From assembly GCA_946410555.1 (NCBI GenBank), contig CAMKAT010000004.1, positions 1 through 63,627 on the forward strand: a stretch of DNA of 63,627 bases. Direction: 5' to 3'. Numbering within the stretch: position 1 is the stretch's first letter; each line of letters starts with the position of its first letter. A model generated the notes under the pieces. It did not search any database, was not told the DNA's origin, and was given only the letters and a program-made list of their open reading frames with translations. Origin of the DNA: an uncultured Bacillales bacterium. Lineage in GTDB: Bacteria; Bacillota_I; Bacilli_A; RF39; UBA660. A program made the position numbers and the translations under genes. Shown here one piece after another: positions 16,643 through 42,190 of this stretch.

Positions 16643-16650
16643 GTACCTCC

Positions 16651-18796: not shown

Positions 18797-18805
18797 AGTT
18801 CCTCC

Positions 18806-19195: not shown

Positions 19196-19210
19196 AAAAT
19201 CACCAAAAAT

Positions 19211-19257: not shown

Positions 19258-19318
19258 TTAGTTAAGTTATATTGCTTATTTATTTATAATTAAATATACT
19301 TTAAATAGGAGAATATGT

Positions 19319-20038: not shown

Positions 20039-20051
20039 CCTTTATTTTTAT

Positions 20052-21371
20052 TTACCACATAACTGTATAACTACCATCGGAAGAGTAGAAGTTATCTAAG
20101 GTATTAATATATCCATATAATCTATATAGATCAGAATTTCTATCAGTATAACTTAATTTATTAATTCTAACTCCTTTAAGAAGTGATTCAGCAATATAAA
20201 TGTAATTATCATCTAGACCTGCGATTAAAGCTGTATGGCCATCTCTTGCAACAATATCACCAACTTTATATTTTCTAGCATTAGCATATTCATATGTAAG
20301 TTCATGCATTTCTCCGATATCACTCATATCATCAATACCGGGGCTAATACCAGATCCAATATCACCAACATCATGACCACTATTTAGCATAGCCCATGTT
20401 ACAAATCCTGAACAATCTAATCCATTAGGATATAAACCTCCGATAGTCCAACCATATTCATCATCGTAATTAACAAGTCCACATCCCCAGATTGCTGGTC
20501 CAGAATGGACTTTTTTTAAGTCTTTAAACTTAGATTCGTTTAGATATAATCCTATATGATAATATCTTCCTTCGCCATCAACATATCTTTGTCCATTAGT
20601 GTTATTAAGTCTTCCATGTTCAAAGAAGTATGGAACTTTATATCTAAAATTTAAAGTAATAAATCTTAATACTTGAATCATAGCCGCTCTTGAACCAGGT
20701 TCTTCAGCGGTAACTCTTGATTCTAATATTTTATCTAATAATTCATTTTCTTCTTTAGAATATCTATTGCAAGGAACCTTACTTTTATTATCATCAAGTT
20801 CTGGTTTTCTAATAATATCAGTTACTATAACTTTGATTGTATCACTAACACCATTCTTAGTAGTTACCTTAACATTAGTAGTTCCTACATTGTTACCAGT
20901 TATTTTACCGTTATCTACTTTAACAATGTTTTCATCATCACTTGTCCAAGTTACTTCTTTATCTGTAACACTTCCTATTTCTTCGAAAGATAATCTTAAA
21001 TTATATGATTCACCAGGAGCTAAATAGTATTCATGTGTATGTATTTTTATTTTAGTTATTTCGTTTATTTTAATATTTATTTCTTTATAGTCATTAGTAA
21101 ATGAATTTTTTACCTTTAACTTATATTCACCGTCAACAACATTAAATTCACATTTACCATTCACAGGTTTAACCCATTCATTTTCATTAATGGCACATAC
21201 TGAATCTAAATAGTTATTATCTACATCCATATAAACAGTTAAACTATTATCAGAATTAAGACTACTATAACTTATGTTAGATATCGTAATTGGATTTAAC
21301 ATGAAAAAAGATAGGAAACATAATAAAGATACAAATATAATAACTGTCAAAAAAAATATGACTTTCTTCAT
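20052..21371 (-). CDS. Secreted cell-wall peptidase: Big_2 domain plus C-terminal NlpC/P60-like cysteine peptidase
   Basis: Signal/TM N-terminus; Big_2-like VTWTSDDENIVKVDNGKITGNNVGTTNVKVT; catalytic context GLDCSGFVTWAM ... DGHTALIAG. Confidence 0.75.
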   Translation of the reverse strand: MKKVIFFLTVIIFVSLLCFLSFFMLNPITISNISYSSLNSDNSLTVYMDVDNNYLDSVCAINENEWVKPVNGKCEFNVVDGEYKLKVKNSFTNDYKEINIKINEITKIKIHTHEYYLAPGESYNLRLSFEEIGSVTDKEVTWTSDDENIVKVDNGKITGNNVGTTNVKVTTKNGVSDTIKVIVTDIIRKPELDDNKSKVPCNRYSKEENELLDKILESRVTAEEPGSRAAMIQVLRFITLNFRYKVPYFFEHGRLNNTNGQRYVDGEGRYYHIGLYLNESKFKDLKKVHSGPAIWGCGLVNYDDEYGWTIGGLYPNGLDCSGFVTWAMLNSGHDVGDIGSGISPGIDDMSDIGEMHELTYEYANARKYKVGDIVARDGHTALIAGLDDNYIYIAESLLKGVRINKLSYTDRNSDLYRLYGYINTLDNFYSSDGSYTVMW

Positions 21372-24850: not shown

Positions 24851-24947
24851 ATTAAAGTCCTCCATAAGCGAATTATACATATTAATAAAATAAAAGTAAA
24901 TTATTTTTAAAATATATGTTAAACTATATATTACCTAGGAGGTAAGT

Positions 24948-25289
24948 ATGGGAAAGATAGATGTAAAATTATGGATAAAATATCATAATCATCCAAAGTC
25001 ACATTATACAGATGATGAACTTAGAATTATTAGAAAAACTGATGTTTTTATATGCTTCTTAGTTCCTACGAATTTGCTTGAAAAAAGAATTAATCTTGAA
25101 GAAGTAAGAAATTGTTCTCCCTTAAAAAAATTTAATTTACTTTCAAGAGAATCAGAATATTTTGGTGTACCTCCAGAAGTAATTAGTATTAAAATTGATG
25201 AATTATTAAATGAAAATATCAATGAAATAAAGAAAGAGAAAAAAGAAGGAAAAATTAGAACTCTAATTAATAAAATAAAAAAACATTAA
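24948..25289 (+). CDS. Hypothetical protein (113 aa)
   Basis: ORF with an AGGAGG RBS; its stop codon lies inside hairpin repeat copy 0. Confidence 0.6.
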   Translation: MGKIDVKLWIKYHNHPKSHYTDDELRIIRKTDVFICFLVPTNLLEKRINLEEVRNCSPLKKFNLLSRESEYFGVPPEVISIKIDELLNENINEIKKEKKEGKIRTLINKIKKH

Positions 25290-25307
25290 CTTAATTGTTA
25301 ATGTTTT
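25280..25307. repeat. Hairpin repeat family, copy 0 (bidirectional terminator)
   Basis: AAAACATTAAC-ttaatt-GTTAATGTTTT. It differs from the other copies by one compensated stem pair and lies between convergent genes. Confidence 0.7.
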
Positions 25308-26077
25308 CTTTTTGTATATTTATTATTTAAGTAAAGCTTTTTAGCCATTTCTTCATAATTAGTATTTAATTCATCGTTACAATCATAAATGAATCTACAT
25401 TTATCTTCATTTAATTTAAAATTATTTTTGAACAAAGAATTAAACTCAAGGTAATCTTCACCATCGAAGTAAGAACCACCAAGTGAGAATTTCCATTCTT
25501 TTAGATTATTTAAAAGATTAGCATTAATATTATCTATTGATGAAAAAATACAAAATGTACCATCACCAAATAATTGTGCATTCTTTAAATATTTATACTT
25601 TTCAACAAATTCTTGATATTCCATAAATAAATCTAAATAATCTTTAGCAGGAAATCCATCAACTTTTACTTCATCTCTATAAAAGTTTTCATTGTTATAT
25701 GGAAGTCCTCCGCTTGTAACGAAAGTCTCTATCTTTCCATCTTTTTCTAAGATATTAAAGTAAGTAAAGTTATGATCAGTCATTATTGGTTTTTCTACAT
25801 ATATTTCTACATTTTTAAAAGTGGAATCACTGTTTTTATAATCTAATATAATTGAGTTATATTTTCCTAATTTAATCTTTCCTAATTTTTCATAATCTTT
25901 TTTAAATCTCATATATTCATCATTAAAGCTTTTCATAAAATCATATACTGATATAGAGTTTTCTAAATTAGGTACTTGCTTCTTTATATCAAAGTCCACT
26001 TTACATAGATCTTCTCTTGTAATTGTATCAGTAAATATTAAGTTACTAGTATTCACAAAATCATTTCTTTTATCCAT
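25298..26077 (-). CDS. Hypothetical protein (259 aa)
   Basis: Long ORF with no motif recognised; the C-terminal KH-stop is encoded within the hairpin. Confidence 0.65.
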   Translation of the reverse strand: MDKRNDFVNTSNLIFTDTITREDLCKVDFDIKKQVPNLENSISVYDFMKSFNDEYMRFKKDYEKLGKIKLGKYNSIILDYKNSDSTFKNVEIYVEKPIMTDHNFTYFNILEKDGKIETFVTSGGLPYNNENFYRDEVKVDGFPAKDYLDLFMEYQEFVEKYKYLKNAQLFGDGTFCIFSSIDNINANLLNNLKEWKFSLGGSYFDGEDYLEFNSLFKNNFKLNEDKCRFIYDCNDELNTNYEEMAKKLYLNNKYTKRKH

Positions 26078-26197
26078 AATACACTTCCTTAGAATTGATT
26101 ATATCATAGTTAATAATAAGTAAATAAAAATATTACAATAGTATTCAAATACTTATATATGTTATGATAATTAAAAGTATATAGATAGGAGATAGAT

Positions 26198-27666: not shown

Positions 27667-27743
27667 GTAAAATACTATCTTTATGATAGTATTTTTTTAT
27701 ATAATAATATTAATTAATGATATACTTTAGGTGAGGCGATAAT

Positions 27744-28739
27744 ATGAAGCGTTTAAAATATGTAATTTCTCGTATATTTAAAATGGATTTTAAAAATATG
27801 TTTAGAATTGCAAAAAAAATAAGTAAAAAGGCAAAAAGACCTAGATTATTTATTCTTATAGATATGGTTATCTGTGGATTTAAATATGGGGCAGGTTATT
27901 ATGACTATCAAGAATTTGAATTCTATTTATTAAAAGGTAAAGAAAGAAAAACTTATCTTACTAGAGCTAAGAATAATCAAATAATTAGTACATATAATGA
28001 TAAAAAGTTCTTCCATGTATTAGATAATAAAATAGAATTTAATGAAAAATTTAAAGACTATATAAATAGAGATTATATGTTTATTGATGATAATTATGAT
28101 GAATTTGAAAAATTCTTCAAAAGTCATAAAACTATCATAGCTAAGATTATTGACGGTGAAGGTGGAAAAGGAATTGAAAAGTTCACTTATACTGATTCCA
28201 CTGAATCTAAAAAAATATATAATTCTTTAGTTAAGAAAAATGAATTATTAATTGAAGAATGTATCGTTCAACATGAATCAGTAGATAAGTTATATTCAGG
28301 TTCAGTTAATACATTAAGATTATTTACTTTCTTTGATGGTAAGAAAGCTTATGTAGTTAATCAAATATTTAAATTTGGTAATGGTGGAGTAACTGATAAC
28401 TTCAGTAGTGGCGGTATGTATACATTCACTGATGAGGAAGGTGAAGTTATTGTTCCTGCTATTGATAGGGAAGATAATACTTTTGAAGTTCATCCTTTAA
28501 CAAATGAAAAAATCATAGGTTATAAAGTTCCTCATTTCAAAGAAGCTTGTGATCTTGTTTGTAAAGCTGCAAAGGAAATTCCTGAGATTAAGTATATTGG
28601 TTGGGATGTAGCAATTACAAAAAAAGGTCCTGCTATTATCGAAGGAAATTCATTCCCTGGAGTATTCCAAATTAAACCAAGTTTCTTAAGAAATAAAGGA
28701 TTAATAACTAAATATAGTAAATATATGAATATAAAATAA
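27744..28739 (+). CDS. ATP-grasp domain protein (sugar-transfer-associated / alpha-L-glutamate-ligase-like type)
   Basis: GEGGKGIEKF glycine-rich loop and C-terminal IIEGNSFPG. Confidence 0.6.
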   Translation: MKRLKYVISRIFKMDFKNMFRIAKKISKKAKRPRLFILIDMVICGFKYGAGYYDYQEFEFYLLKGKERKTYLTRAKNNQIISTYNDKKFFHVLDNKIEFNEKFKDYINRDYMFIDDNYDEFEKFFKSHKTIIAKIIDGEGGKGIEKFTYTDSTESKKIYNSLVKKNELLIEECIVQHESVDKLYSGSVNTLRLFTFFDGKKAYVVNQIFKFGNGGVTDNFSSGGMYTFTDEEGEVIVPAIDREDNTFEVHPLTNEKIIGYKVPHFKEACDLVCKAAKEIPEIKYIGWDVAITKKGPAIIEGNSFPGVFQIKPSFLRNKGLITKYSKYMNIK

Positions 28740-28764
28740 AACACTAACTTAAAGTTAGTGTTTT
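28738..28764. repeat. Hairpin repeat family, copy A (bidirectional terminator at the left edge of the accessory region)
   Basis: AAAACACTAAC-ttaaa-GTTAGTGTTTT. Overlaps the stops of both convergent ORFs. Confidence 0.75.
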
Positions 28765-29418
28765 TTCATTGTTATAATCTTGTTTGAAATTTAAGATAGG
28801 TATTTCTATAATTTCATATTCATTATATGAATAATTTCTATAACTATATAATTTTTTTACATCATCTTTAGCATCGTCGGAATAATCATTTATATTAAAG
28901 AAATTCATGTAATAAGCTAATATTGCTTCTAAATCATATATATAAAAATTTGAATATTTATTCCTTAATGCAATAATCTTTATATTTGATGGTGGAATAA
29001 TATCATTATAACAACAATTATCAGGTTGACTTTCGTCCTCAACTTTTATTCCTTCAATAGTAAGAAGGCAAGGAGAACCACCTAAATAGTTTTGAAAACT
29101 TCCACAATTCCTTACGTCTTCAATTCTTTTAATTGTCAAATTACATTCATCAATCATAAATGTATATCCTGGATTATATCTTTGAATATCATTTTTACAT
29201 TCCTTAATTATCTCTGTTCCTTCTATTCCTACTATTTTTAAATAATAGTTAAGTATATGTGAAAACATTTGAATTGAATTTTTTATACCTTTTGATAAAA
29301 ATACACCGCAATCTTTATCTTGAATAGAGTATGATCTGAAACCAGATTGAGGTATTAGACCAAACTGCATAATGCTATTAAAATTATTTAAACTTGTAAA
29401 ATGATAATATTTATCCAT
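28744..29418 (-). CDS. Hypothetical protein with an ART/Tpt1-like N-terminal motif
   Basis: DKYYHFTSLNNFNSIMQFGLIPQSGFRS...GVFLSKG resembles the H-x-T ... GL-P ... R ... V-x-LS pattern of KptA/Tpt1 and DarT-type ADP-ribosyltransferase folds. Judged by eye only. GAGGGG RBS before ATG 29418. Confidence 0.6.
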   Translation of the reverse strand: MDKYYHFTSLNNFNSIMQFGLIPQSGFRSYSIQDKDCGVFLSKGIKNSIQMFSHILNYYLKIVGIEGTEIIKECKNDIQRYNPGYTFMIDECNLTIKRIEDVRNCGSFQNYLGGSPCLLTIEGIKVEDESQPDNCCYNDIIPPSNIKIIALRNKYSNFYIYDLEAILAYYMNFFNINDYSDDAKDDVKKLYSYRNYSYNEYEIIEIPILNFKQDYNNEKTLTLS

Positions 29419-29475
29419 AAAACCCCTCACATTTATGCATATTCTAGCACTAATTATTTTTAAGTCAAATAAAAT

Positions 29476-29501
29476 AAGAACGAACTAAATAGTTCGTTCT
29501 T
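29476..29501 (-). terminator. Terminator hairpin after the 114-aa gene
   Basis: AAGAACGAAC-taaata-GTTCGTTCTT, T-rich on the minus strand. Confidence 0.6.
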
Positions 29502-29511
29502 TTCAAATTAT

Positions 29512-29856
29512 TTATAAGTTGTAATATTCTTTTATAAAACCTATAATATCAGAATTGTTTTCTTTTACTTTTGGATCTTCCAATAATTCATCTAAAGTAA
29601 AATATTTACCTTCGATATCAGCATTTACTTCATAGAAGTAATGATGATAAGTTCTATTTTCATTATGAGATACAGAATATTTATCATGTACTTTATCGAA
29701 TAAAAATTTTACATTATCTGTATTATATTTTTCTTTTATTTCTTCGATATCATTTCCTTTTATATTAGGAAATAAATACATATCCCATCTTTCATCATAG
29801 TAATTTAAAAATTTATTATCTTTTTTTATTAAAATTATTGAATGTATGCTCTCCAT
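29512..29856 (-). CDS. Hypothetical protein (114 aa), Nudix-fold-like without an obvious Nudix box
   Basis: SIILIKKDNKFLNYYDERWDMYLFPNIKG resembles the Nudix N-terminal strand/W-x-F-P-G pattern. No GX5EX7REUXEE box was seen. Confidence 0.55.
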   Translation of the reverse strand: MESIHSIILIKKDNKFLNYYDERWDMYLFPNIKGNDIEEIKEKYNTDNVKFLFDKVHDKYSVSHNENRTYHHYFYEVNADIEGKYFTLDELLEDPKVKENNSDIIGFIKEYYNL

Positions 29857-29894
29857 AATGTTCTCCTTACTTATTTTAAATTATAGCAAAAAAA

Positions 29895-29945
29895 TAATAA
29901 TCGAACTACAAAGTTCGATTATTATTTTATGCATTAGAAAAATAG
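29895..29945 (-). repeat. Cassette-end repeat, minus-orientation relative
   Basis: The minus strand reads ATTTTTCTAATGCA...AATAATCGAAC-tttgta-GTTCGATTATT. Compare copy D, ATTTTCTAAATGGCACGGTAATCGAAC. Confidence 0.45.
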
Positions 29946-29964
29946 ATTCAAATTTATAATACTT

Positions 29965-30144
29965 CTATTTAGCAATCGGAGTATTATTCTTTAAACTCTC
30001 TTTTTCATTTTTTAGATGTTCTTTATATGCTTTTCTAATTTTTAATGGTGTATTTAGTTTTAATTTTCTTTTCCCATTTTTATCTATAACTAAATATTCT
30101 ACCCATGGTGCTTGATCAGCTGTGAACAATCCTTTTTGATTCAT
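29965..30144 (-). CDS. Small hypothetical protein (59 aa), below the ORF-track cutoff
   Basis: GGAG RBS 8 nt upstream of the ATG (30142-30144). Translation MNQKGLFTADQAPWVEYLVIDKNGKRKL...; has its own terminator. Confidence 0.45.
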   Translation of the reverse strand: MNQKGLFTADQAPWVEYLVIDKNGKRKLKLNTPLKIRKAYKEHLKNEKESLKNNTPIAK

Positions 30145-30267
30145 AATATCATCTCCTAATGATATTATACAATAAATAAAAATACTTTTGTACTTAGTTT
30201 ATTTAATGACAAATGTAATAATATGTTTTATAGTAATATTGTAATTAAAGAAAGGAGTGTGATTAAA

Positions 30268-30315
30268 ATGTTTATAATTACAAATTTAAATAGATTTAAT
30301 CACATTTGTGGTTAA
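30268..30315 (+). CDS. Candidate 15-aa leader peptide (MFIITNLNRFNHICG)
   Basis: Strong AAAGGAG RBS 8 nt upstream. Embedded in the 9-bp inverted repeat GTGATTAAA/TTTAATCAC. Ends 22 nt before the deaminase start. Confidence 0.4.
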   Translation: MFIITNLNRFNHICG

Positions 30316-30337
30316 ATCTTAGGAAGGAACTAAGATT

Positions 30338-30745
30338 ATGGAAAAAGAGATATGGGATTTACTTATTAGTAAGGCAAAAGAGGTAAGAAATCCTAAAGTA
30401 ATCTCACCATTCATTGAAGGCGGACAAGTGGGTGCAGCAATACTAACAAAAGCGGGTAATATATATACTGGTGTATGTATTGATACAGCTTCTACATTAG
30501 GAATATGTGCTGAGAGAAATGCTATTCATACCATGATTACTAATGGTGAATCAAAAATTGATAAAATAGTATGTATTGATTCTTCAGGTAGAGCTGGATC
30601 TCCTTGTGGAGCATGTAGAGAACTAATTATGCAATTAGATAAAGATTCAAAGAATATAGAAATTCTTCAAAATGAAGAAACATATGAAGTAATTACTATG
30701 GAAGAATTAATGCCTGATTGGTGGGGATATTCTAGATTTGAATAA
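30338..30745 (+). CDS. Cytidine-deaminase-fold zinc enzyme, blasticidin-S deaminase-like
   Basis: CAE (ICAERNAI) and SPCGACRELIMQL zinc motifs. The 135-aa size and C-terminal ELMPDWWGY resemble BSD/Bsr-type deaminases. Confidence 0.7.
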   Translation: MEKEIWDLLISKAKEVRNPKVISPFIEGGQVGAAILTKAGNIYTGVCIDTASTLGICAERNAIHTMITNGESKIDKIVCIDSSGRAGSPCGACRELIMQLDKDSKNIEILQNEETYEVITMEELMPDWWGYSRFE

Positions 30746-30746
30746 G

Positions 30747-30790
30747 AAAACACTAACGTAAAGTTAGTGTTTTAATATTCTTAATGGCAC
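30747..30790 (+). repeat. Cassette-end repeat, copy B
   Basis: AAAACACTAAC-gtaaa-GTTAGTGTTTT then AATATTCTTAATGGCAC. Confidence 0.75.
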
Positions 30791-30989
30791 CTTTAGTAGT
30801 TCGTTGAGAAACCATACAGGTTTCTTTTTTTATGTATGTCAACTAATTAAGTTACGTCATCAATTCATTATATTTTTATATTAAGTAGATTTAAATATCT
30901 ACTTTTTTATGCATGTAAACAAACTCTACAAATAGTGTGGATACTTTTATATAATATGGATATACAATGTAGTTGAAAGAAGGAATAAT

Positions 30990-32423
30990 ATGGATCAAAA
31001 AAGAATAGGACACTTTATAGCTAAACTTCGTAAAGAAAATAATTTGACTCAACAAGAATTAGCAGATCAACTATATGTAACTGATAGAGCAGTTTCACAC
31101 TGGGAGAATGGAAGAAGGTTACCTGATATATCATTATTGAAAAATTTATCGGATATATTAGGTGTATCTGTAAATGAATTAATAAGTGGCGAAAAATTTA
31201 AAGATAATAATATAATAAAAAAATCTGATGATAACATTATAAAAACATTAAAGGATAATAAAAAGAATAAACAATTATTTAAGTTAATTACATTTATTTT
31301 AATTATCATGTTAATATTATTGATTGTATTTGCTAATATCACTTTAAAGAAAAATATAAAACCAAAAATCAAAATATTTAGTATTAATGTTCAACAAAGT
31401 GAAAATACTAAATGGAATAGTAATGAACAACTACATATTAAATTGTATTATTTAGATTCGGTTGATTTGTGTACAGAAAATGGAAATTGTTATGATATTT
31501 TTTATGCATTTGAAAATAATGCCATGGATAGAATTACTTTATCTAATTATTTAAATAAGCAAGTTGAAATTAATGCTTTAAAAAGTGAAACATTAAATGA
31601 TAGTAGGAGTACAATTTATTCAAATGATTATTATGAGGTTGTAATGTGTAATACTCAAGAAAGTAATAATGATATATTAGTTGGAAGGCCAGGTTTAACA
31701 GATAATTTAAATGGAAATATATGTGGCTATAAAGGAATTAATATTAACAAATTCCATAGAGTATACCACATCAAATCTATCAAAGAAAGTAATAAAGATA
31801 CTATAGATGTTGAATTAACTGACGATAATAAAAAATATCATGTAGTAAATATCATAAATAAGTATGATATATTACCTGGACATGATTATGAATTTACTTT
31901 CGGCACTTATGAAAATTTTTCTGAAACTGTTGAAAACATATTTAATTATTCAATCATATATAATGTTGAAGAATATACATTAGATGAGAGTATTTCTGAA
32001 TACAATAGTAATAAAGATGAAATCAAAGTAAATGAAAAGAATACCGGTGTATTAAATGAGATTCCAGAAGCATCTATGTATATTAAAAAGAATAGTATGA
32101 GTAAAACTAAGGCTACAGTTATCATTGAAGATTACTCTAATGGTCAATACTTTTATGGTTCTTTCTATAAAATTGAAAAGTATAATTCAAATGGAGAATG
32201 GACAGATTTAGTATATATCAATGATAAAAATACTTCTTGGAATAGTATGGGATATAAACCTGATAAAACAGGAATTATCAAATATGAACTTGATTGGAAA
32301 GAATTATATGGTGAATTAAGTGCAGGAAAATATAGAATTGTAAAAACCGCTGTTAAGGAAAGCGATCCTTGTACTAATGGCTGCAAATTATATAATATTT
32401 CTGTTGAATTTAATATTGAATAA
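30990..32423 (+). CDS. Membrane-anchored XRE-family HTH protein with a large extracytoplasmic domain
   Basis: N-terminal HTH_3 (IGHFIAKLRKENNLTQQELADQLYVTDRAVSHWENGRRLPD), one TM, and a C-terminal Ig-like region ending GKYRIVK. Confidence 0.8.
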   Translation: MDQKRIGHFIAKLRKENNLTQQELADQLYVTDRAVSHWENGRRLPDISLLKNLSDILGVSVNELISGEKFKDNNIIKKSDDNIIKTLKDNKKNKQLFKLITFILIIMLILLIVFANITLKKNIKPKIKIFSINVQQSENTKWNSNEQLHIKLYYLDSVDLCTENGNCYDIFYAFENNAMDRITLSNYLNKQVEINALKSETLNDSRSTIYSNDYYEVVMCNTQESNNDILVGRPGLTDNLNGNICGYKGININKFHRVYHIKSIKESNKDTIDVELTDDNKKYHVVNIINKYDILPGHDYEFTFGTYENFSETVENIFNYSIIYNVEEYTLDESISEYNSNKDEIKVNEKNTGVLNEIPEASMYIKKNSMSKTKATVIIEDYSNGQYFYGSFYKIEKYNSNGEWTDLVYINDKNTSWNSMGYKPDKTGIIKYELDWKELYGELSAGKYRIVKTAVKESDPCTNGCKLYNISVEFNIE

Positions 32424-32558
32424 TTGGAATCAAAAGATTCCTTTTTTTCATGGTATAATTTATATATATAAATGATTATTCTTCAAATGTTAAAATACAT
32501 TGCTTGTAGCAACGGTATATTTATAATAAATTGAACTTGATGAAAGGAGAAATTTAAT

Positions 32559-33065
32559 ATGTTAAAAGATAATTTAAAAATATTAAGAAAGAATAAAGGT
32601 CTTTCACAAGAAGAATTAAGTGTTAAATTACATGTTGTTAGACAAACAATTTCAAAATGGGAATCAGGTTTATCTGTTCCAGATGCTGAAATGCTAGTAA
32701 CAATATCAGAGTTATTTGAAACACCAGTAAGTGAAATCCTCGGAGAAAATATTGAAAAACAAGAAAAAGATGATTTAAAAGTAATATCTGAAAAATTAGA
32801 AGTGATTAATGAACAATTATCAAATTATCAAAAGGAGAAAAGAAAGCAAAAAAATAAAATATTGATAATTATAGATATAAGTATCATTTTACTATTCATA
32901 TTGTTGGCAATATTAGGCAGTCCTTATCTGACTTGGGACTATAATATTACAGAATGGGCAATATTAGGAACTTTCTACCATGCATTTGAATGGATGTTTA
33001 TGAGACTAGCACCTATTGTTGTAATAGTATTAACAACTATTATATTAATTAAAAAGAATAAATAG
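32559..33065 (+). CDS. XRE-family HTH protein with C-terminal TM helices
   Basis: LKILRKNKGLSQEELSVKLHVVRQTISKWESGLSVPD followed by two hydrophobic helices. Confidence 0.8.
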   Translation: MLKDNLKILRKNKGLSQEELSVKLHVVRQTISKWESGLSVPDAEMLVTISELFETPVSEILGENIEKQEKDDLKVISEKLEVINEQLSNYQKEKRKQKNKILIIIDISIILLFILLAILGSPYLTWDYNITEWAILGTFYHAFEWMFMRLAPIVVIVLTTIILIKKNK

Positions 33066-33088
33066 CATAATAATTATAATATAAATAA

Positions 33089-33133
33089 AAAACTCTAACA
33101 ATTAAGTTAGTGTTTTACTTTTCTAAATGGCAC
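33089..33133 (+). repeat. Cassette-end repeat, copy C
   Basis: AAAACTCTAAC-aattaa-GTTAGTGTTTT (one stem mismatch) then ACTTTTCTAAATGGCAC. Confidence 0.75.
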
Positions 33134-33225
33134 AATAATCATAAGGGTTTAAAACTTTTTTTAATTATTATAATACAGGTAATCATTAAATATGAAACAA
33201 TGATATAATGTTGTTGAGGTGTCTT

Positions 33226-33996
33226 ATGGATAAGAGTTTATATGAAATGATATTTAAGAGAAAGTCTTTTCATTTATTTCGAAATATAGGTAATGAAAAA
33301 ATCAGCAATGATGAATTAAAAGATATTGAGAATAAATTTAATGATTTAAAACCACTTGTGAAGGATATTAAAGTCAAAATAAAAATAGTTAAAGATTCAA
33401 CTACTTGTAAAAGAGGACAAGAGTATTGCATACTATTTTATTCAGAAAAGAAAGATAATTATCTTCAAAATATTGGTTATATAGGAGAACAGTTGGATCT
33501 TTACTTAGTATCTAAAAATATCGGTACTTTATGGTTTGGAATAGGAAAAGTTGAAGAACCTAAAATTGACAATTTAGATTTTGTTATTATGATTGCTATT
33601 GCAAAGGTAGATAAAGAAGATAAATTTAGAAAAGATATGTATAAGAGTAAAAGAAAAGCATTATCTGAAATATGGGAGGGTGATAATCTTCTAGATATAG
33701 GAAATATCGTTCGTTTTGCTCCAAGTGCATGTAATACTCAACCATGGAGAGTTGAATCTTCTGATAATATATTAAAAGTATATAGATATCGAAAAGAAGG
33801 TAAAAGAGGAATAATGCCTAAGGATATGGTTATATACTATAATCAAATAGATATTGGTATATTCTTATGTTTCTTAGAATTATGTTTAGAGAAAAACAAT
33901 ATATCTTATAACAAAAAAATATATGTAGAATCAAATCATGAAAATGAAAATAATTTAGTTGCTGAATATATAATAAAAAACACTAACTTTTGTTAG
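33226..33996 (+). CDS. Nitroreductase-family protein
   Basis: IFKRKSFHLF N-terminal FMN-binding pattern and RFAPSACNTQPWR motif. GAGGTG RBS before ATG 33226. Confidence 0.8.
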   Translation: MDKSLYEMIFKRKSFHLFRNIGNEKISNDELKDIENKFNDLKPLVKDIKVKIKIVKDSTTCKRGQEYCILFYSEKKDNYLQNIGYIGEQLDLYLVSKNIGTLWFGIGKVEEPKIDNLDFVIMIAIAKVDKEDKFRKDMYKSKRKALSEIWEGDNLLDIGNIVRFAPSACNTQPWRVESSDNILKVYRYRKEGKRGIMPKDMVIYYNQIDIGIFLCFLELCLEKNNISYNKKIYVESNHENENNLVAEYIIKNTNFC

Positions 33997-34018
33997 TGTT
34001 TTATTTTCTAAATGGCAC
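33977..34018 (+). repeat. Cassette-end repeat, copy D (abuts the recombinase element)
   Basis: AAAACACTAAC-tttt-GTTAGTGTTTT then ATTTTCTAAATGGCAC. The hairpin encodes the last codons (KNTNFC-stop) of the nitroreductase. Confidence 0.75.
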
Positions 34019-34109
34019 GGTAATCGAACGAGTTTCCAAATTATAATTTACCACTTATTCAATTTCCTTTGCTGTTTAAATTATACTATATATTTATAAT
34101 TTTAACAAC

Positions 34110-35792
34110 CTAGTTAGCAAAACTTTCACTAACTTTTTTTAATAAATTAGTTGGCTCTGTTAAGTATAAATATATAGTCTTTTCTTTTTCAATAACACTT
34201 TTTGGTTTTACTTTGATTATCTTAAATAATAATACATCTAAATAATAATCATAATCTTCTGATAATGTATATGCCATTAACTTATGCTTTTTCTTTAATA
34301 ATTCAATATATTCCAAAGCATCTTTTTCATGTTTCATTGTTGATATTGAAGCCTTATATACACCAGTACCAATTATTTTATCAACCATATTTCCATTAGT
34401 ATAATCTAATAGTTCATTAACTTTATTTGGTTTTAATTTTAAATCTGTTATATCAACCGATGTTATTTTATTTCTTGATGTCTTATATTCCTTAATTGTT
34501 ATTTTATCTACATACTTTCCTATAAACTCACATTTTGTTTCATAAGATGTCATATTCCATAATTCGTTTAAATCATTTTTTGTTAATGCTTTTCTTTTTT
34601 CTTCAATAATACTTTCATCTATTGCAAATCTTAATCTATGGTCTAATCTACAATTATTAAAATCATTTGCTGTCTTTTTATCAGTTATATAATAATTCTC
34701 ACTAATTAAATTAGATAGTTCAAATAAGTTATTTAATTCACTCATAAGTGCCTTTTCTATAAGTTCTTCTCTAATGTATGTTCCACAATCTTTGCACTTA
34801 TAATATAGATATTCAGTTTTATTTGGTTTCCTTGTTCCATTACAAGCCATTATTCTTCCACATTTAGGACACACTAATCTTTGTATAAATAAATATCTTT
34901 TTGACCTATAATAATTTCTGCCATTTCTAAATATCATATCTTGGCAGTCATTAAATAAATCTTCTGAAACTATTTTAGGAACAATATCTACAATTTCTAT
35001 TGTTTCTTTATTATCAATACTTTTTCTATATTCATAAGTACCCATATAACATTTATTATTCAATATACAAGATATAGAACTATCAGTCCAACTTCTATAT
35101 GTTATTTTTTCTTCATTTGTATTTTTATCTTTTCTAATAGATGATATTACATTAGGATACTTTTCTTTTAATATATTAGATATTTGAAAATATGTTTTTC
35201 CACTCGCACATAGTTCAAATATTTCTCTAACTATTTTTGCTTCATCTTCATTGATAATCCATTCTTTTAATTTCTTTCCATCATCATCTAATTTAGTTTT
35301 ATAACCAAGAGGGGGCTTACCACCAAAATGCCCCTTATTAACAGCACTTTCAACTCCGACCAATGTTCTTTCTTTTATTAGTTCTCTTTCAAATTGAGCA
35401 AATATGCCTAATATACGAGCAAACATCATACCTGCTGCACCATTAGTATCTATCTTTTCACATAAGAACTCAATACCACAATTATACTTTTTAATTTCAT
35501 TAAAGAAAGTTTCAAAATCAACTATACTACGACTTATTCTATCCATTTTGAAAGCCATAATTAAATTGAACTTCCCTTTTTTCATATCTTTCATCATTTG
35601 TTGATAGGCTGGTCTATTTTCAGTAGACTTACCACTAATACCAGCATCAGTATATACCTTATAAACTTTATAATTGTTTGCTTCACACATTGCTCTTAAT
35701 CTTTTCTCTTGTTCTTCTAATGAATGTCCTTCTCGGGCTTGGTCTGTTGTACTAACTCTTGTATATATAGCAACTAACTTTTCTTCAACCAT
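34110..35792 (-). CDS. Large serine recombinase (integrase)
   Basis: VAIYTRVSTTDQ catalytic Ser motif, recombinase domain (GGKPPLGYK), zinc ribbon CPKCGR...YYKCKDCG, C-terminal coiled-coil region; 560 aa. Confidence 0.92.
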   Translation of the reverse strand: MVEEKLVAIYTRVSTTDQAREGHSLEEQEKRLRAMCEANNYKVYKVYTDAGISGKSTENRPAYQQMMKDMKKGKFNLIMAFKMDRISRSIVDFETFFNEIKKYNCGIEFLCEKIDTNGAAGMMFARILGIFAQFERELIKERTLVGVESAVNKGHFGGKPPLGYKTKLDDDGKKLKEWIINEDEAKIVREIFELCASGKTYFQISNILKEKYPNVISSIRKDKNTNEEKITYRSWTDSSISCILNNKCYMGTYEYRKSIDNKETIEIVDIVPKIVSEDLFNDCQDMIFRNGRNYYRSKRYLFIQRLVCPKCGRIMACNGTRKPNKTEYLYYKCKDCGTYIREELIEKALMSELNNLFELSNLISENYYITDKKTANDFNNCRLDHRLRFAIDESIIEEKRKALTKNDLNELWNMTSYETKCEFIGKYVDKITIKEYKTSRNKITSVDITDLKLKPNKVNELLDYTNGNMVDKIIGTGVYKASISTMKHEKDALEYIELLKKKHKLMAYTLSEDYDYYLDVLLFKIIKVKPKSVIEKEKTIYLYLTEPTNLLKKVSESFAN

Positions 35793-35808
35793 TTTTAATC
35801 TCCTTTCT

Positions 35809-36153
35809 TTAACAATTTTCTAATAAACTTTTATTTATTTGTTCTTCATCATCTTTTTTATCTGCTGATGTTTCAAATAACTTTTTTAATTTAGGCATTT
35901 TATAATTTTCATCTTTTAACTTTGCCTTTCTTTTAAACATACGAAAACCCATTACTTTTTCCATTGTGACATAGACATTAGTAATTGTTTTTACATAATT
36001 ACCATTTTCATCATAAATAGGTTCTTCTTCATATCTTACATTATCTTTGCCATATCTTTCTTCCCAGTTTATAGGAATTAGAGGTGTAGGCATTTTTTCT
36101 TCAATTTCATATATTTGTGGTACAAATACCATTTTTGAATTTTTTCTTTTCAT
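35809..36153 (-). CDS. Hypothetical protein (114 aa), upstream of and co-oriented with the recombinase
   Basis: ORF 16 nt upstream of the recombinase gene; no motif recognised. Confidence 0.55.
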   Translation of the reverse strand: MKRKNSKMVFVPQIYEIEEKMPTPLIPINWEERYGKDNVRYEEEPIYDENGNYVKTITNVYVTMEKVMGFRMFKRKAKLKDENYKMPKLKKLFETSADKKDDEEQINKSLLENC

Positions 36154-36271
36154 ATACTAAAACTCCTTTCTTCATATTGAGTTTAACAACTTTTTATGAT
36201 ATATTAGATATCAATATTGAAAATGTTTTTGTATTTACATTTTCCATATATCTTAAAAGGAATGATAGTTA

Positions 36272-37123
36272 ATGAATTATGGTAAAGAATTTATATTATT
36301 TGAAAATATGAGTACCAAAGAAATAAGTATTAAAAGTAATAATAAGCATTATAAATTAGGTTTTGAAACTGCCTTTGATATTTTAACCAAAGAACAACAA
36401 TTATTATTAGATAGATTATTTAATTATGCCAATAGTTTTAATTCAGGTTATGTTGATAGTATTGTTTGGTATTCTTTTTTAGCCACATCAAATATAGAAT
36501 TACCACTTATAAAAGAACAATATAAATACAATAATATTGATAACATAAAAGATATAGATATATCAGTACAAAGAAGTGGAAGAAATATAAATAGCCATTT
36601 AACTAAAAATGATTTTACTGATAATAATTTATATCAAATGAAAAAGACACCATTATTTCAAATTTCTAATAATGAAAATATGAATAATGATGATTTTTGT
36701 ATGATATTACAAAAGACTATTTACTATAAAACTGATACTGAATTTTTATTAGGCTTATTACATTCTATTTTTTCCACATCCAAGCAATATTATTTAAAGA
36801 AATGTAATAGATGTGGAAAATACTATATAACTAATAAAACTGATAATTGTTATTGTAATAGGGAATATGAGTATAATAATAAAACCATATCTTGCAGTGA
36901 TATTGCTAAAATACTAAAAAAATCTTATGCCTATGTTGAATTAAATAAAAAACACAAATCTTTCTTACAAACATTAAATAAAAATAAAAATGTTAAAACT
37001 GAATATATTGAAACATATAAAATAGAGCATAAGAAAAAAGTAAAAGAGTATGTTAGAACTATGAATATCAATCCACTAAAAGATTTTATAAATACATATG
37101 AAGAATTACACCCATATAACTAA
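36272..37123 (+). CDS. Hypothetical Cys-rich protein (283 aa)
   Basis: CNRCGKYY...CYCN...C cluster suggests a zinc-binding module. Confidence 0.6.
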   Translation: MNYGKEFILFENMSTKEISIKSNNKHYKLGFETAFDILTKEQQLLLDRLFNYANSFNSGYVDSIVWYSFLATSNIELPLIKEQYKYNNIDNIKDIDISVQRSGRNINSHLTKNDFTDNNLYQMKKTPLFQISNNENMNNDDFCMILQKTIYYKTDTEFLLGLLHSIFSTSKQYYLKKCNRCGKYYITNKTDNCYCNREYEYNNKTISCSDIAKILKKSYAYVELNKKHKSFLQTLNKNKNVKTEYIETYKIEHKKKVKEYVRTMNINPLKDFINTYEELHPYN

Positions 37124-37713
37124 TATTTATTAACCATATTATAAAATGTACTTGGTTTAAGACCTAGTTGTTCTATTGCTTCTTTTGTTTTAATTTCTTT
37201 ATTTTTCCATTTATTAACCACAATATCAAAATTTTGTGGTTTTTCTATTGTTGGTCTACCAAACTTAATTCCTTTATTCATTGCTGTTGATATACCTTCT
37301 TTTTGCCTTTGTTTAATAAAAGTTCTTTCTTGCTCTGCGACATAAGATAATATTTGTAAAATTAAATCACTAATAAATGTACCTAATAAATCTTTATTTT
37401 TAGTAGTATCTAATAATGGCATATCTATAACTACAATATCAGCCTTAATATTCTTTGTAATATCTTTCCACTCATCAATAATCATATTATAATTTCTTCC
37501 AAGTCTATCAATGCTTTTAATAACTAAAATATCATTTTCCCTTAATATATGTTTTAAGATATTATATTGCTCTCTATCAAAATCTTTTCCACTTTGTTTG
37601 TCTATATAAATATCTCTTTCATCAATACCATAATTTTTAAATGCTATTATTTGTCTTTCTTCATTTTGTTCTTTACTACTAACTCTTGCATAACCAAATA
37701 TTTTGTTTTTCAT
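37120..37713 (-). CDS. Small serine recombinase (resolvase/invertase family)
   Basis: IFGYARVSSKEQNEERQ catalytic motif and a C-terminal HTH (TKEAIEQLGLKPSTFYNMV); 197 aa. Confidence 0.9.
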   Translation of the reverse strand: MKNKIFGYARVSSKEQNEERQIIAFKNYGIDERDIYIDKQSGKDFDREQYNILKHILRENDILVIKSIDRLGRNYNMIIDEWKDITKNIKADIVVIDMPLLDTTKNKDLLGTFISDLILQILSYVAEQERTFIKQRQKEGISTAMNKGIKFGRPTIEKPQNFDIVVNKWKNKEIKTKEAIEQLGLKPSTFYNMVNKY

Positions 37714-37723
37714 AATATAAAAC

Positions 37724-37954
37724 CTACCTTGCTAAATAATCGCTCGTTTCTCTATATATCTTATCGATGATGTCACAATCAAAAGTTTTATAGAAATCTA
37801 CTTTTATATTTTTCTTCTTTAACTCATCAATAAAATTAGAACAAGCAATAGTATATGGGAAATCATTTTCATTTTCTTCAATCCCAGTTAATAGAGTATC
37901 AATATAATCATCGCATACAGAAGATACTATTTTTCTTAATGCAAATCTTTCCAT
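37724..37954 (-). CDS. Hypothetical protein (76 aa)
   Basis: AAGGAGG RBS precedes the ATG at 37954. Lies immediately upstream of the resolvase gene. Confidence 0.5.
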   Translation of the reverse strand: MERFALRKIVSSVCDDYIDTLLTGIEENENDFPYTIACSNFIDELKKKNIKVDFYKTFDCDIIDKIYRETSDYLAR

Positions 37955-38144
37955 TTTATGCCACCTCCTTACCATATGAAGAATAATTATATGATACTTT
38001 TTTCGTTCTTAAAAGGCTTTTTCTTTAAAAAGGTTATGAATGACTTTTTACATATCCAAAAAAGAAATAGGGACTTTATTACATAAAAAAGAGACTTAAT
38101 TTCATATAAAATTAAATCTCCAATAAAGTGTACTTTTTTAAATA

Positions 38145-40673
38145 TTATAATTTTTCATAATCAACCTTTTCTTTATAATCTCTATTATTCCCAGAATTAT
38201 TATATAAAAATAATACTTTTTCTTGTTCTGAATTTAAGTCATAATTAACTTTTTTTAATATACTGTCTACTTTTTCTCTAGTAGTATATAATTTTAAATT
38301 TTCATTTGAAAAATCATATCTTTCGTCCATTCCATAATAAGTTGTTATAAACATCCCCAAGAATTTAAATATTGTTTTATTATTAACATATGACATAACA
38401 TATTTTTTTAATTTTTCTTTATCTTCTATATTTCTATATAATAACCAAAAATACTCTCTACTATTTTCAGCATTAAAAATATTTACTTTATTATTTATAT
38501 CTAATTCTAATTTCTCTTCTAGTTTTCCTTTACCATAATTATATATAAATTCTTTATGACTATTTTGTTCATATTTATCTGGTTTTAACCATCTCAATAC
38601 TTCTTCTAATAAGAAATAATCTTTTTCATATATTAAGTCTATATATTCTTTTTGCTTACCTTGTTCTTGTTCATTATCTATAATAGATGATAATAATATT
38701 TTAGCTCTATCACAAGAATTAAGTCCTAAAAATCTGATGCCATCTTCATACTTATCAATATTATCTAAAACATAATCAAATATGGAAGAACTATCACTTA
38801 TTTCTTTTATGCGAATATTTAATAATTCAAATAATAAATCATGGTTATTAGGATTAACTTTTCTAATTATATAATTAAATTCTTTTTCTATTTTTTTACC
38901 ATTATTTACATTAGTTATAAAATCATTAACCAAAATATTTAACTCTGTAAAAAATGAGTGCCTAATAGTAAAGTAGTTCTTAAAAAATCTACCATTATAA
39001 CATCTTCTATTTTTTATTGAGTTAATTCTATCATCATTAACTACATAATAATATTTTTCCTTAATCGGCTGATTATCATCATATTTTTTTACATTTGGAA
39101 AAACATAGCATAATAATTCTTTTATTTTTTCATCTTTAAATAAATCATCAAAAAACTGTTTTGCTTCTTCATTATACTTTTCTGGCCATATATATTCATA
39201 TTCCATACCATAATTACTATCTTCTGATATAAAATACTTTGAATTGTTATATATATTATTATATAATGTGATATCTTTAAATTTGATAAATTCTAAAACT
39301 AAATAATCAGAAATATCTAATTTTAAAATATAAAGAAACTTAATAGATGTTGAAATGGAATTTATAAACCTTATTACTTCTCGTAAATCTTCAAAATTAT
39401 TAAATATTAAATTTGATATTTTTGAAAAATGATTTTTGTCAGTAATGTCTATATTATAAATATTTAGTAGATTAGATAAACATTTTGTTCCAATATCAAT
39501 AATCTTTTCTTTTTCTATAATTGGAACATACACCTTATCTTGCACTATCTTATTCAAATAATCGCTATCTATTTTTAGTTCTTGTTCAAATATTTTTTTA
39601 ATTCTTGTTTCATCATAACTTAATATATAAACGATGTTATCAAAATCAAAAATATTTTTAACCATTTTAAATGTAAATAATATTTCTTCTTTGCCTAATC
39701 TATCAATATCATCAATAACAATAATTATTTTTTTATCGTTATATTTAATAATATCATTTATTTGTTTTTTTATTGTTTCTAATTCTTGCTCATCATCTTC
39801 AGCAAAAATAGTAGGTAATGAAATATTAGTTGTCCTTTCTATCATATTGAAAATTACCTTTTCATATTTTTTTAGCATACTTTTATAATTAACATAACCA
39901 TAATTTTTGCCAATAAGTTTAAATATATAATTATAAAAACCTCTAAATAAACTAATCTTATTGTCATATTTCCAAGGACTAAAGGTATCAATTAAACAAA
40001 TATTACTACTATTAATTTTAAGTTTTAATAAATTTATTATGCTGGTTTTACCACAACCCCATTTACCAATAAGAGATGTTACAAAAGTCTTTTTAGGATT
40101 ACAGTGAAGTAAACTATCTCTAATACTATCAGTAAATAAAGATAAATCTAATAAATCTTCATTTTCACTTTTTATTGCTTCTTCTTCAAGTAGAATGAAA
40201 CTTTGATTTGTATTTTTAATTTTATTGTTATAAAGGTCATAAATATTATATATATTGCTGTGTTTATCACTACTTTTTTTACTAATTTTTTCTATATGAA
40301 TTACTCGTATAATAACTATTAAAATATTAACTGCTAATATCAAAAACAAAATATTTTTCCAATAAGAATAATATACAATATAGCCATATATAGATAATAC
40401 TTCCGAAAATAGCAAGACAGTTATTATTTTATCAAAATAAGTCATTGTAGATAAAAATAATAAATTCCATAATTTTCTCTTAAATATTTCACATATAAAG
40501 TAAATTAGTATTAAAACTAATACTATCTCGGTATATATCATATTTTGTTCAGCAAATAATAAATTAGTTATATCTAAATAATCTAAAATAAAAATTATTG
40601 AACTGACTATGAAAGAAGTGAAAACTATTGAATAAAGGTTAAAAAAACTATGTAATTTCTTAAAATAATTCAT
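38145..40673 (-). CDS. Membrane-anchored KAP-family P-loop NTPase
   Basis: About four N-terminal TM helices, Walker A LIGKWGCGKTSIINLL, Walker B KKIIIVIDDIDRLGKEE, and a long helical C-terminal region. GGGTGA RBS before the ATG at 40673. Confidence 0.8.
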   Translation of the reverse strand: MNYFKKLHSFFNLYSIVFTSFIVSSIIFILDYLDITNLLFAEQNMIYTEIVLVLILIYFICEIFKRKLWNLLFLSTMTYFDKIITVLLFSEVLSIYGYIVYYSYWKNILFLILAVNILIVIIRVIHIEKISKKSSDKHSNIYNIYDLYNNKIKNTNQSFILLEEEAIKSENEDLLDLSLFTDSIRDSLLHCNPKKTFVTSLIGKWGCGKTSIINLLKLKINSSNICLIDTFSPWKYDNKISLFRGFYNYIFKLIGKNYGYVNYKSMLKKYEKVIFNMIERTTNISLPTIFAEDDEQELETIKKQINDIIKYNDKKIIIVIDDIDRLGKEEILFTFKMVKNIFDFDNIVYILSYDETRIKKIFEQELKIDSDYLNKIVQDKVYVPIIEKEKIIDIGTKCLSNLLNIYNIDITDKNHFSKISNLIFNNFEDLREVIRFINSISTSIKFLYILKLDISDYLVLEFIKFKDITLYNNIYNNSKYFISEDSNYGMEYEYIWPEKYNEEAKQFFDDLFKDEKIKELLCYVFPNVKKYDDNQPIKEKYYYVVNDDRINSIKNRRCYNGRFFKNYFTIRHSFFTELNILVNDFITNVNNGKKIEKEFNYIIRKVNPNNHDLLFELLNIRIKEISDSSSIFDYVLDNIDKYEDGIRFLGLNSCDRAKILLSSIIDNEQEQGKQKEYIDLIYEKDYFLLEEVLRWLKPDKYEQNSHKEFIYNYGKGKLEEKLELDINNKVNIFNAENSREYFWLLYRNIEDKEKLKKYVMSYVNNKTIFKFLGMFITTYYGMDERYDFSNENLKLYTTREKVDSILKKVNYDLNSEQEKVLFLYNNSGNNRDYKEKVDYEKL

Positions 40674-40717
40674 AAAATCACCCAAGTAATATTATATCAT
40701 TAAAAAATGCCTTTTGT

Positions 40718-41218: not shown

Positions 41219-41242
41219 AATAACAACTCCATATCATAATAT

Positions 41243-42058: not shown

Positions 42059-42190
42059 AAAATATTATAACATATATAACTAATATCTTATGTTTATTAC
42101 CGATTATTTCGCTCATATTTCGTTTTTAAAATAAAATCAACATATTTTATTATCTCAATACAAAATATCTTTTATATAACATTTATCAAA

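Follow-up and report, generated by a model that had tools for sequence, protein, structure and literature searches.

Hairpin repeats in an uncultured Bacilli genome as probable joints of a tandem integrative-element array at tRNA-Trp

The DNA analysed here is a 63,627-nucleotide (nt) stretch with a G+C content of about 25% (contig CAMKAT010000004.1 of assembly GCA_946410555.1, from an uncultured Bacillales bacterium), referred to below as the window. It contains a run of short accessory genes that end in copies of one hairpin repeat and, to their right, a 10.7-kb integrative element that reaches a tRNA-Trp gene. An earlier note, which missed the tRNA anchor, had compared the layout to tandem accretion at one attachment (att) site, as in staphylococcal cassette chromosome (SCC) islands, or to integron cassettes. 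An exact search for AAAACAYTAAC-N(2-12)-GTTARTGTTTT recovered copies A (25280-25307), B (28738-28764), C (30747-30773) and E (33977-34002), with no match in 100 shuffled sequences. Copy D (33089-33116) has one mismatch in its left arm (AAAACTCTAAC); the equivalent arm is perfect in a strain contig that is 98.9% identical to the window (L128; such numbers denote comparison loci, mostly contigs of metagenome-assembled genomes (MAGs) or metagenomes). The five copies within 9 kb described in the earlier note were all recovered in this way, and its impression that the hairpin does not occur elsewhere in the window held up: a fuzzy search placed every family member between 25.2 and 34.0 kb, left the remaining 54 kb empty and added one degenerate relative (AAAATACTATC...GATAGTATTTT, 27669-27695) 3' of a TPM-domain gene, at the position where the syntenic locus L064 holds a canonical AACACTAAC hairpin. 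A hairpin at 52489 was unrelated, and a supposed minus-strand relative at 29895-29945 proved to be an ordinary terminator hairpin that profile searches did not pick up.

The hairpins are 25-29 nt long, with a perfect 11-bp stem and a loop that varies from 3 to 7 nt. Folding of all copies on both strands gave stems of 11-12 bp (-8 to -17 kcal/mol, z -2.6 to -4.3), and intrinsic-terminator scoring rated every copy terminator-like in both directions. Open reading frames (ORFs) finish inside the hairpin (KH-stop, KNTNFC-stop), as had been claimed, and a second conserved block does follow three copies: C, D and E continue as TTCTWAATGGCA, and the motif TTCTWAATGGCAC occurs at 30778, 33121 and 34006, only after the hairpins at 30747, 33089 and 33977. 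Shuffled sequences held a mean of 0.24 matches to this motif, and none reached three. No Rfam family matched the repeat, only tRNAs and 16S rRNA reaching the gathering score in the window, and a scan of viral contigs gave no match to hairpin plus block.

Hairpin, spacer and a terminal TGGCA core together form a full repeat, and the three full copies are the junctions of elements stacked at one site. Full repeat C (30747-30789, plus strand, spacer AATATTCTTAATGGCA, profile score 44.0) closes a segment with a deaminase gene. It is followed by cassette X (2.3 kb, 30790-33132, plus strand), which consists of a left end of the type designated T3 (CCTTTAGTAGTTCGTTGAGAAACC), an HTH/Big_14 gene (30990-32423), an HTH membrane gene (32559-33065) and full repeat D (33089-33132, plus strand, hairpin and ACTTTTCTAAATGGCA). 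The HTH168 gene and its repeat are 87-90% identical in L037, where they adjoin tRNA-Trp, and in L054, where they lie between two repeats; an exact-protein look-up of HTH168 matched only contigs of the same strain. Cassette Y (0.9 kb, 33133-34017, plus strand) starts with a T1-type end (CAATAATCATAAGGGTTTAAAACTT, 33133-33157, plus strand), which we read as a P'-type recombinase half-site, and continues with an extended -10-like element (TGATATAAT, 33190-33205), a nitroreductase gene (33226-33996, plus strand) and full repeat E (33977-34017, plus strand, hairpin and ATTTTCTAAATGGCA). Exact-protein look-ups of the nitroreductase, with two start codons, and of a right-flank gene gave no matches. 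The same -10-like element precedes cassette genes in L042 and L071, and the small cassettes look as if they have their own promoters; a promoter scan of the region did not rise above chance. Repeat E forms the left junction (attL) of element Z, the 10.7-kb integrative element that fills 34018-44721 between this repeat and the tRNA-Trp gene. To the right of repeat C, a segment of about 59 bp (30844-30902) flanked by an 18-bp direct repeat is missing from L128.

The tRNA-Trp gene (CCA) lies on the minus strand at 44722-44795, 10.7 kb to the right of copy E. On the plus strand TGGCA is the reverse complement of its G73-CCA 3' end plus one acceptor base, and the att site lies at the CCA end of the tRNA. 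The window reads ...ATTTCCAACAATGGCA|GGGG at this point, and the TGGCA at 44722-44726, the end of the tRNA gene, is the true far junction of Z. A ATTTTATGGCA motif at 44633-44643, which the earlier note had taken for the far end of the element, lies inside Z and reads TTTACCAT in the relative L120, and so is not conserved. A scan for the bare hairpin with one genome per species returned at least 118 loci, many of them unrelated single occurrences. MAG loci assigned to uncultured Bacilli, Erysipelotrichaceae or 'Tenericutes' share the spacer AATATTCTAAATGGCA 3' of the hairpin. In at least 17 loci of other genomes, all from gut and rumen Bacilli that are uncultured, this spacer runs directly into GGGG..GAATCGAAC.., the opposite-strand reading of tRNA-Trp. 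On this evidence the repeats are probably the joints of a tandem array of integrative elements at the last 5-7 bases of tRNA-Trp (AATGGCA on the plus strand).

The simplest alternative is a generic terminator, or a repeat of the kind known as miniature inverted-repeat transposable elements or repetitive extragenic palindromes, with no connection to recombination. The hairpin is indeed a good bidirectional terminator, and its bare 22-nt stem occurs in unrelated genomes: AAAACACTAAC/GTTAGTGTTTT lies immediately 3' of another tRNA gene in Clostridium species (L009, L020, L088, L117), and the same stem occupies one conserved locus in many Chryseobacterium species (L003 and others), in both cases without the spacer block. 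A generic repeat would be scarcely credible, however, given that all window copies fall in one 9-kb stretch beside the island, that in other genomes the hairpin-spacer copies cluster within a few kb of tRNA-Trp (among the matches listed), that the spacer is the 3' flank of tRNA-Trp, that the repeat has neither terminal inverted repeats nor target duplications and that Rfam holds no match for it.

Profile searches found at least 46 full repeat copies in at least 36 loci. In at least about 26 of these an element end comes next; its first base is nearly always C, in place of the G of the tRNA, and the sequences that follow TGGCA fall into types. T1 (CGATAATCATAGGGGTTTCAAACTT) follows window copy D and at least 12 junctions in at least 8 other genomes, with different cargo each time; T2 (CGCTCTTTATAAACG..) was found in L098, L054, L016, L051 and L144, T5 (CCGGTAGCTACC..GAAACTA) in L002, L004, L069 and L075, T4 (CATCAAGTATCC..) in L054, and T3 only after window copy C. 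Window copy E is followed by the Z arm (CGGTAATCGAACGAGTTTCCAAATT), with the 3' end of a 560-aa recombinase gene within 92 nt. Arrays of the same layout were found in L038/L060, L098, L054, L004, L036 and L144. L038 has two T1 cassettes and L098 two T2 cassettes before tRNA-Trp; L004 has at least four junctions; L054 has four, one of which borders a 2.5-kb element that is little more than a 626-aa large serine recombinase; and in L144 the tRNA is followed by a repeat, a two-gene T2 cassette and the P arm belonging to a recombinase element. The window (C, D and E), L038, L098, L054, L004 and L144 all contain tandem composites with repeats at their borders and with some members that have no recombinase. 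Among the cargo are GNAT acetyltransferases, methyltransferases, a DNA-alkylation repair protein, GrpB and ApeA/HEPN.

The cassettes have a right end of the same type as the sequence that adjoins the tRNA where a site is empty. Close to the tRNA the junctions are intact, whereas those farther away lack spacer or core, in the window (B, 27669 and A) as in L038 (at 1563 and 3002); such a gradient would be expected if elements enter beside the tRNA and decay as they age. Copies A and B, which the earlier note had counted with the other three, are hairpin only, with no junction. Copy A has a variant stem (CATTAAC/GTTAATG), lies between convergent genes without spacer block or junction, and is possibly an old, decayed array member. 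Copy B serves as terminator of an ATP-grasp gene and has no spacer block; in L097 an ATP-grasp gene 74% identical to that of the window is followed by a full hairpin and spacer and then directly by tRNA-Trp.

Several cassettes recur with different neighbours. The nitroreductase cassette is 98.0% identical at the nucleotide level in L135 (a k=141 contig), where its repeat adjoins a tRNA-Trp gene only 76.6% identical to that of the window and Z is missing, so the cassette is common to different hosts. The same nitroreductase gene end and repeat adjoin tRNA-Trp in L079. Between L037 and L054, 505 bp comprising HTH168 and its repeat are 99.4% identical. The A of TGGCA is precisely the last homologous base; from there L037 continues with tRNA-Trp and L054 with a T4 element. 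Genes that adjoin tRNA-Trp in one genome or another include those for the ATP-grasp (L097), macro-domain (L011), HTH168 (L037) and nitroreductase (L079) proteins. The clearest case is that of contigs L144-L150, which are 99% identical and encode the same recombinase protein: a 1136-bp cassette with one gene and no recombinase is present in L145, L149 and L150 and absent from L144 and L146-L148. It has TGCCA on both sides, a right end formed by a hairpin and TTACATCCAAATGGCA, and a left end (CGATTTTAAAGGCAATTCCCAATTT) that matches a recombinase-adjacent arm at 18 of 25 positions. The presence and absence of single cassettes at repeat boundaries that the earlier note had looked to is therefore seen between strains of this sister system, and not in the strain of the window itself, where L128 has an unchanged array over the part that its contig covers.

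Homologous recombination offers one account of such exchanges: the repeats, at 44-70 nt, would be mere homology patches for RecA-mediated swapping after DNA uptake, with no site-specific enzyme involved. In its favour, the repeats are 80-100% identical over 44 nt, and over up to about 70 nt with T1, and nitroreductase homologues lie on many contigs of about 1-2 kb, which may reflect assembly breaks at flanking repeats; the repeats would then be long enough to interrupt assembly. The breakpoints nevertheless fall exactly at the TGGCA core and not anywhere in the repeat, identity on either side of the L145 cassette extends over no more than about 7 nt and its arms are dissimilar, and the conservation of the left ends is left without explanation; we consider this account very unlikely.

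Another alternative is that the array is a fossil, its units being decayed, once-autonomous recombinase elements that are no longer individually mobile and its repeats their scars. Consistent with this, no recombinase lies beside any T1, T2 or T5 junction, the distal copies are degraded, the close strain relative L128 carries the same array, and cargo pairs with different left ends (the left end of the GNAT gene is T1 in L042 but T2 in L054), a pattern suggestive of decay and fusion in situ. Old scars would be hard to reconcile with a 98% identical cassette in a host whose tRNA-Trp is only 77% identical, with the 99.4% identical cassette that has different right neighbours in two genomes, with a one-gene cassette that comes and goes exactly at TGCCA between 99% identical strains, or with a 25-nt T1 end kept across unrelated cargo. 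A fossil array is unlikely in our judgement.

Of the two comparisons made in the earlier note, the one to integrons does not hold up. The core recognized by a tyrosine recombinase has a spacer of fixed length, and integron attC sites contain the boxes RYYYAAC/GTTRRRY. The arms CTAAC...GTTAG loosely recall these boxes, the palindrome has 11-bp arms, and both the size of the cassettes and their cargo (GNAT, nitroreductase, methyltransferase, deaminase) are what an integron would hold, so that the hairpin might be an attC-type folded site, or an Xer/dif-like 11-spacer-11 core, for a tyrosine recombinase encoded elsewhere. Like integrons, moreover, the array consists of cassettes of about 1 kb, mostly in one orientation and each closed by a conserved palindrome, with insertion at one end and cargo of small-molecule-modifying enzymes. 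Homology between genomes ends at TGGCA, however, 16 nt 3' of the hairpin and not inside it; attC sites are imperfect palindromes of 57-141 nt with R''/L''/L'/R' boxes and a crossover at G|TT of R', whereas the hairpin here has 25-29 nt and a perfect stem. The loop of 3-7 nt varies, and the variable spacer rules out the Xer/dif-like reading of the palindrome. Integrons need an IntI-type tyrosine recombinase, and Pfam scans of about 60 window ORFs gave serine recombinases only (34110-35792 and 37120-37713). Integron cassettes are mostly promoterless and share a common Pc, whereas those of the array appear to hold their own promoters, with -10-like elements, and terminators; the array is, in addition, anchored at a tRNA gene. 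It is not an integron, and an integron-like mechanism is extremely improbable. The part of the earlier comparison that stands is tandem accretion at one att site in the manner of SCC with serine recombinases, for which the junctions and the presence and absence of cassettes at the core speak.

Element Z has the features of a large-serine-recombinase element: its recombinase lies at one end, its ends are constant with variable flanks (L119-L123, L127, L130), and empty-type sites exist (L135, L079). The 560-aa large serine recombinase gene (34110-35792, minus strand) ends 92 nt from the junction, and its product matches Pfam Resolvase (3.6e-38), Recombinase (1.7e-17) and, weakly and below the cut-off, Zn_ribbon_recom (0.0015). 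It has 780 homologues at E<1e-30 and is at most 33% identical to phage integrases; among NCBIfam models CcrB is nearest (151 bits, cut-off 900), followed by CcrC (127, cut-off 900) and CcrA (56, cut-off 700). A 197-aa small serine recombinase (37120-37713, minus strand) is kept in Z-like elements. As the earlier note had stated, these are the only recombinases present, both of the serine type: a Pfam scan of about 60 window ORFs, which outside the island covered those from about 140 aa upwards, gave no tyrosine recombinase or Phage_integrase match.

The P' arm of Z (CGGTAATCGAACGAGTTTCCAAATT, 34018-34042, plus strand) is identical beside the recombinase gene in L119-L123, L127 and L130. Its P arm (44690-44726, plus strand) consists of the hairpin AATCCAATTTTTTGGATT and ATTTCCAACAATGGCA and is joined to tRNA-Trp as attR with the shared core AATGGCA. 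The recombinase-side end, ...CGGTAATCG|TGCCA, is constant in at least seven loci (up to ...CCG|TGCCA), and the outer flank differs in each host. Relatives of the Z backbone in metagenomes always lie between a TGCCA junction and tRNA-Trp, with the tRNA 3-9 kb away; the backbone is kept and the cargo swapped. In L120 the ends of Z are joined (...CCAATAATGGCA|CGGTAATCG...) in a contig that also holds an integrated copy, an attP-type junction that could come either from tandem copies or from assembly through a circle. When attL and attR of the window were compared with the L120 junction and the empty-type sites in L135 and L079, AATGGCA was the only shared core. Z is probably the newest array member in the window.

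Besides the recombinases, Z encodes a PifA-like KAP-family NTPase (PADLOC 4e-39) beside a macro-domain protein (38145-41218) and an HTH protein. In sister elements the same slot holds a reverse transcriptase, DUF4268 or ADP-ribosylglycohydrolase, which suggests that this slot is used for defence genes. At the tRNA-proximal end, a pair of genes for proteins of 97 and 271 aa (43513-44621) is kept in all Z-like elements (94-100 and 266-272 aa); the pair had no match in Pfam, NCBIfam, PHROGs or a plasmid collection, and WHLHILF in the 271-aa protein might be a candidate HUH-type Rep motif. PHROGs returned nothing for nine proteins without family assignment (seven in Z, two in the right flank) or for the 228-aa gene to the left of the full repeats.

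To account for the array we propose that each cassette would be built on one plan, with a P'-type left end of about 25 nt, its own promoter, one or two accessory genes, the bidirectional terminator hairpin and a 15-16-nt spacer with the core. Each insertion would rebuild an intact target next to the tRNA, because the right end of the cassette equals the sequence downstream of tRNA-Trp at unoccupied sites, and the next element would insert there. With each round, older members would come to lie farther from the tRNA and degenerate until only hairpins remain (28738, 27669, 25280), the same logic as in SCC islands at rlmH. For the site to be reused, the enzyme would have to accept a target whose outer half comes from the previous cassette, as happens in SCC but departs from the canonical attP x attB rule. 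Judged from sequence comparisons, the best-supported mechanism would be mobilization in trans, with large serine recombinases of the Z family inserting and excising the cassettes. Compared with P' arms that adjoin recombinase genes, the T1 consensus agrees at 13-18 of 25 positions (15-18 with four of the five arms) and the T1 end at 33133-33157 at 14-16 of 25; the arms match one another at 11-21 of 25. Wherever the DNA retrieved for an array included a recombinase, in the window and in L054, a large serine recombinase lies at a TGGCA junction. Between the tRNA of L144 and a resident recombinase element there is a cassette that ends in the hairpin, which also speaks for the proposed array. As a possible half-site register, a motif of the type TTT.AA was considered, placed about +12 nt into the spacer arm and about +16 into the P' arms; judged by eye the offsets were suggestive but inconsistent, and they were not used.

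Several observations weigh against this picture. Left ends T2-T6 match recombinase-adjacent arms at only 6-14 of 25 positions, a background-like level that takes in T2, T3, T4 and T5, and the T3 end after the copy at 30747 is unlike the arms of the recombinase family. None of at least 12 sampled T1 junctions has a recombinase gene beside it, and recombinase relatives at 61-78% identity each have their own P' arm, none of them T1. No circular form of any small cassette was seen, and L128 has the same array as the window over the length of its contig. Many hosts without the hairpin repeat carry recombinase elements of the Z type, and Z may have landed in an array built by other enzymes. Canonical large serine integrases do not recombine attL or attR with attP unless a directionality factor is present; reuse of the site here would accordingly need a relaxed site choice like that of SCC. 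Finally, the comparison loci were chosen by an exact hairpin match, which biases figures for stem conservation, and an apparently higher conservation of the repeat than of the tRNA (86% versus 81%) was discarded on this ground. That the 0.5-2.4-kb units are true promoter-gene-terminator modules, with a P'-type arm and a target-regenerating arm, shuffled in trans at tRNA-Trp by large serine recombinases is a possibility that we hold tentatively, at somewhat short of even chances.

Among known systems, SCC/SCCmec composites and ECC elements also use large serine recombinases at the 3' end of one conserved gene (bioRxiv 10.64898/2026.03.31.715619; PMC6222049), and in SCC the half-site of the element mimics the chromosomal one (bioRxiv 10.64898/2026.03.31.715619). 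They share with the window array short direct repeats round a small core, an element end that rebuilds the target and yields tandem composites, members without a recombinase (no-ccr elements) and highly variable cargo. Their target, however, is the 3' end of rlmH (orfX) and not the G73-CCA end of tRNA-Trp, and SCC has ccrAB or ccrC, whereas the recombinase of Z is no Ccr orthologue and has no CcrA/CcrB pairing. SCC elements span 3-60 kb, compared with one or two genes in 0.5-2.4 kb here; the window repeat, unlike that of SCC, is a terminator hairpin with a spacer outside the anchor gene, and its hosts, uncultured gut and rumen Bacilli, differ from those of SCC as well.

The layout is even closer to the ssrA islands of Dehalococcoides (DsiB/DsiA), which stand in tandem at an RNA gene with direct repeats at their borders (PMC3146451). 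Beside attL these islands have a reverse-strand module of a CcrB-like large serine recombinase of about 540 aa and a small one of about 200 aa, and many islands without the module have been proposed to be cis-mobilizable (PMC3146451). Z likewise has recombinases of 560 and 197 aa by attL, tandem neighbours and module-less companions. The ssrA target is the T-loop of transfer-messenger RNA, with a 20-bp repeat of the gene itself, whereas the window array uses 5-7 nt of the tRNA and otherwise its downstream flank; the ssrA islands extend over many kb and are rich in rdhA, in contrast to single-gene cassettes, and phylum and recombinase clade differ. Target, recombinase clade, repeat structure and unit size thus make the array a member of neither SCC/ECC nor the ssrA islands. 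Tycheposons and cis-mobilizable elements (CIMEs) also integrate one after another at a tRNA, so that older ones are displaced into an island (bioRxiv 10.1101/2020.12.28.424599; PMC5704250). These too include degenerate members without an integrase between att repeats; unlike the window array, they mostly have tyrosine recombinases and partial-tRNA repeats and are larger. A limited, non-exhaustive literature search turned up no description of tRNA-Trp arrays of the window type.

The surroundings of the array hold further accessory DNA. Relative to L064, a syntenic MAG with 77-80% nucleotide identity, two segments of the window are variable: 24902-26162, with genes for proteins of 113 and 259 aa and hairpin A, is replaced by unrelated DNA, and 27719-29510, with the ATP-grasp and 228-aa genes and hairpin B, is replaced or inserted, which extends the variable island to the left of the intact junctions. 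Farther left, genes for an Abi_2 abortive-infection protein and an HtrA-like protease form a pair (11210-13285), and the same pair flanks the tRNA-Trp island in L140-L142 (L140 16985-19013). To the right of tRNA-Trp, the segment 44889-50798 includes several ORFs without family matches, a 261-aa FtsK/SpoIIIE-like protein gene (47708-48493) and a GH25 lysozyme gene (49569-50798, minus strand), and may represent a further mobile element, located 5' of the tRNA.

Accessory-gene arrays of other kinds were also encountered. L138 (MAG contig JAZAUS010000010.1, about 8100-20700) has an 86% identical nitroreductase in a one-directional array of small genes directly 3' of secA, together with GNATs, APH, hydrolases and a reverse transcriptase. 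In its intergenic units the 3' end of secA recurs as a SEC-C mini-ORF (...CPCGSGKKYKQCCGK), along with a terminator and with TTTAGATACG TTTTAGATACG motifs in tandem. The array has the appearance of a second cassette system that uses the 3' end of secA as its anchor, and may be a sister system. L136/L137 (2700-13500) contain a long same-strand run of accessory genes beside tRNA-Asp/tRNA-Phe, without the hairpin repeat, that encodes a methyltransferase, APH, nitroreductase, peptidase S51, NUDIX, GNAT, cupin, HD and Ham1 proteins.

If the cassettes are indeed mobilized in trans, they would be a functional counterpart of the integron that works with serine recombinases and is widespread among gut and rumen Bacilli not yet cultured, and these low-GC bacteria would own a compact gene-capture platform that dispenses with an integron integrase. 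Stacked at a tRNA, it would supply ready-to-express single-gene modules for acetyltransferases, a nitroreductase, methyltransferases, a deaminase, regulators and defence genes, and such modules could pass from one host to another despite a divergence of about 23% between their tRNA-Trp genes. Hundreds of homologues make the recombinase family an abundant one, and the junctions reveal its att arms directly. A natural large serine recombinase that reuses a regenerated site would bear on the design of landing pads for multiple rounds of serine-integrase insertion and on how SCC-type accretion evolves.

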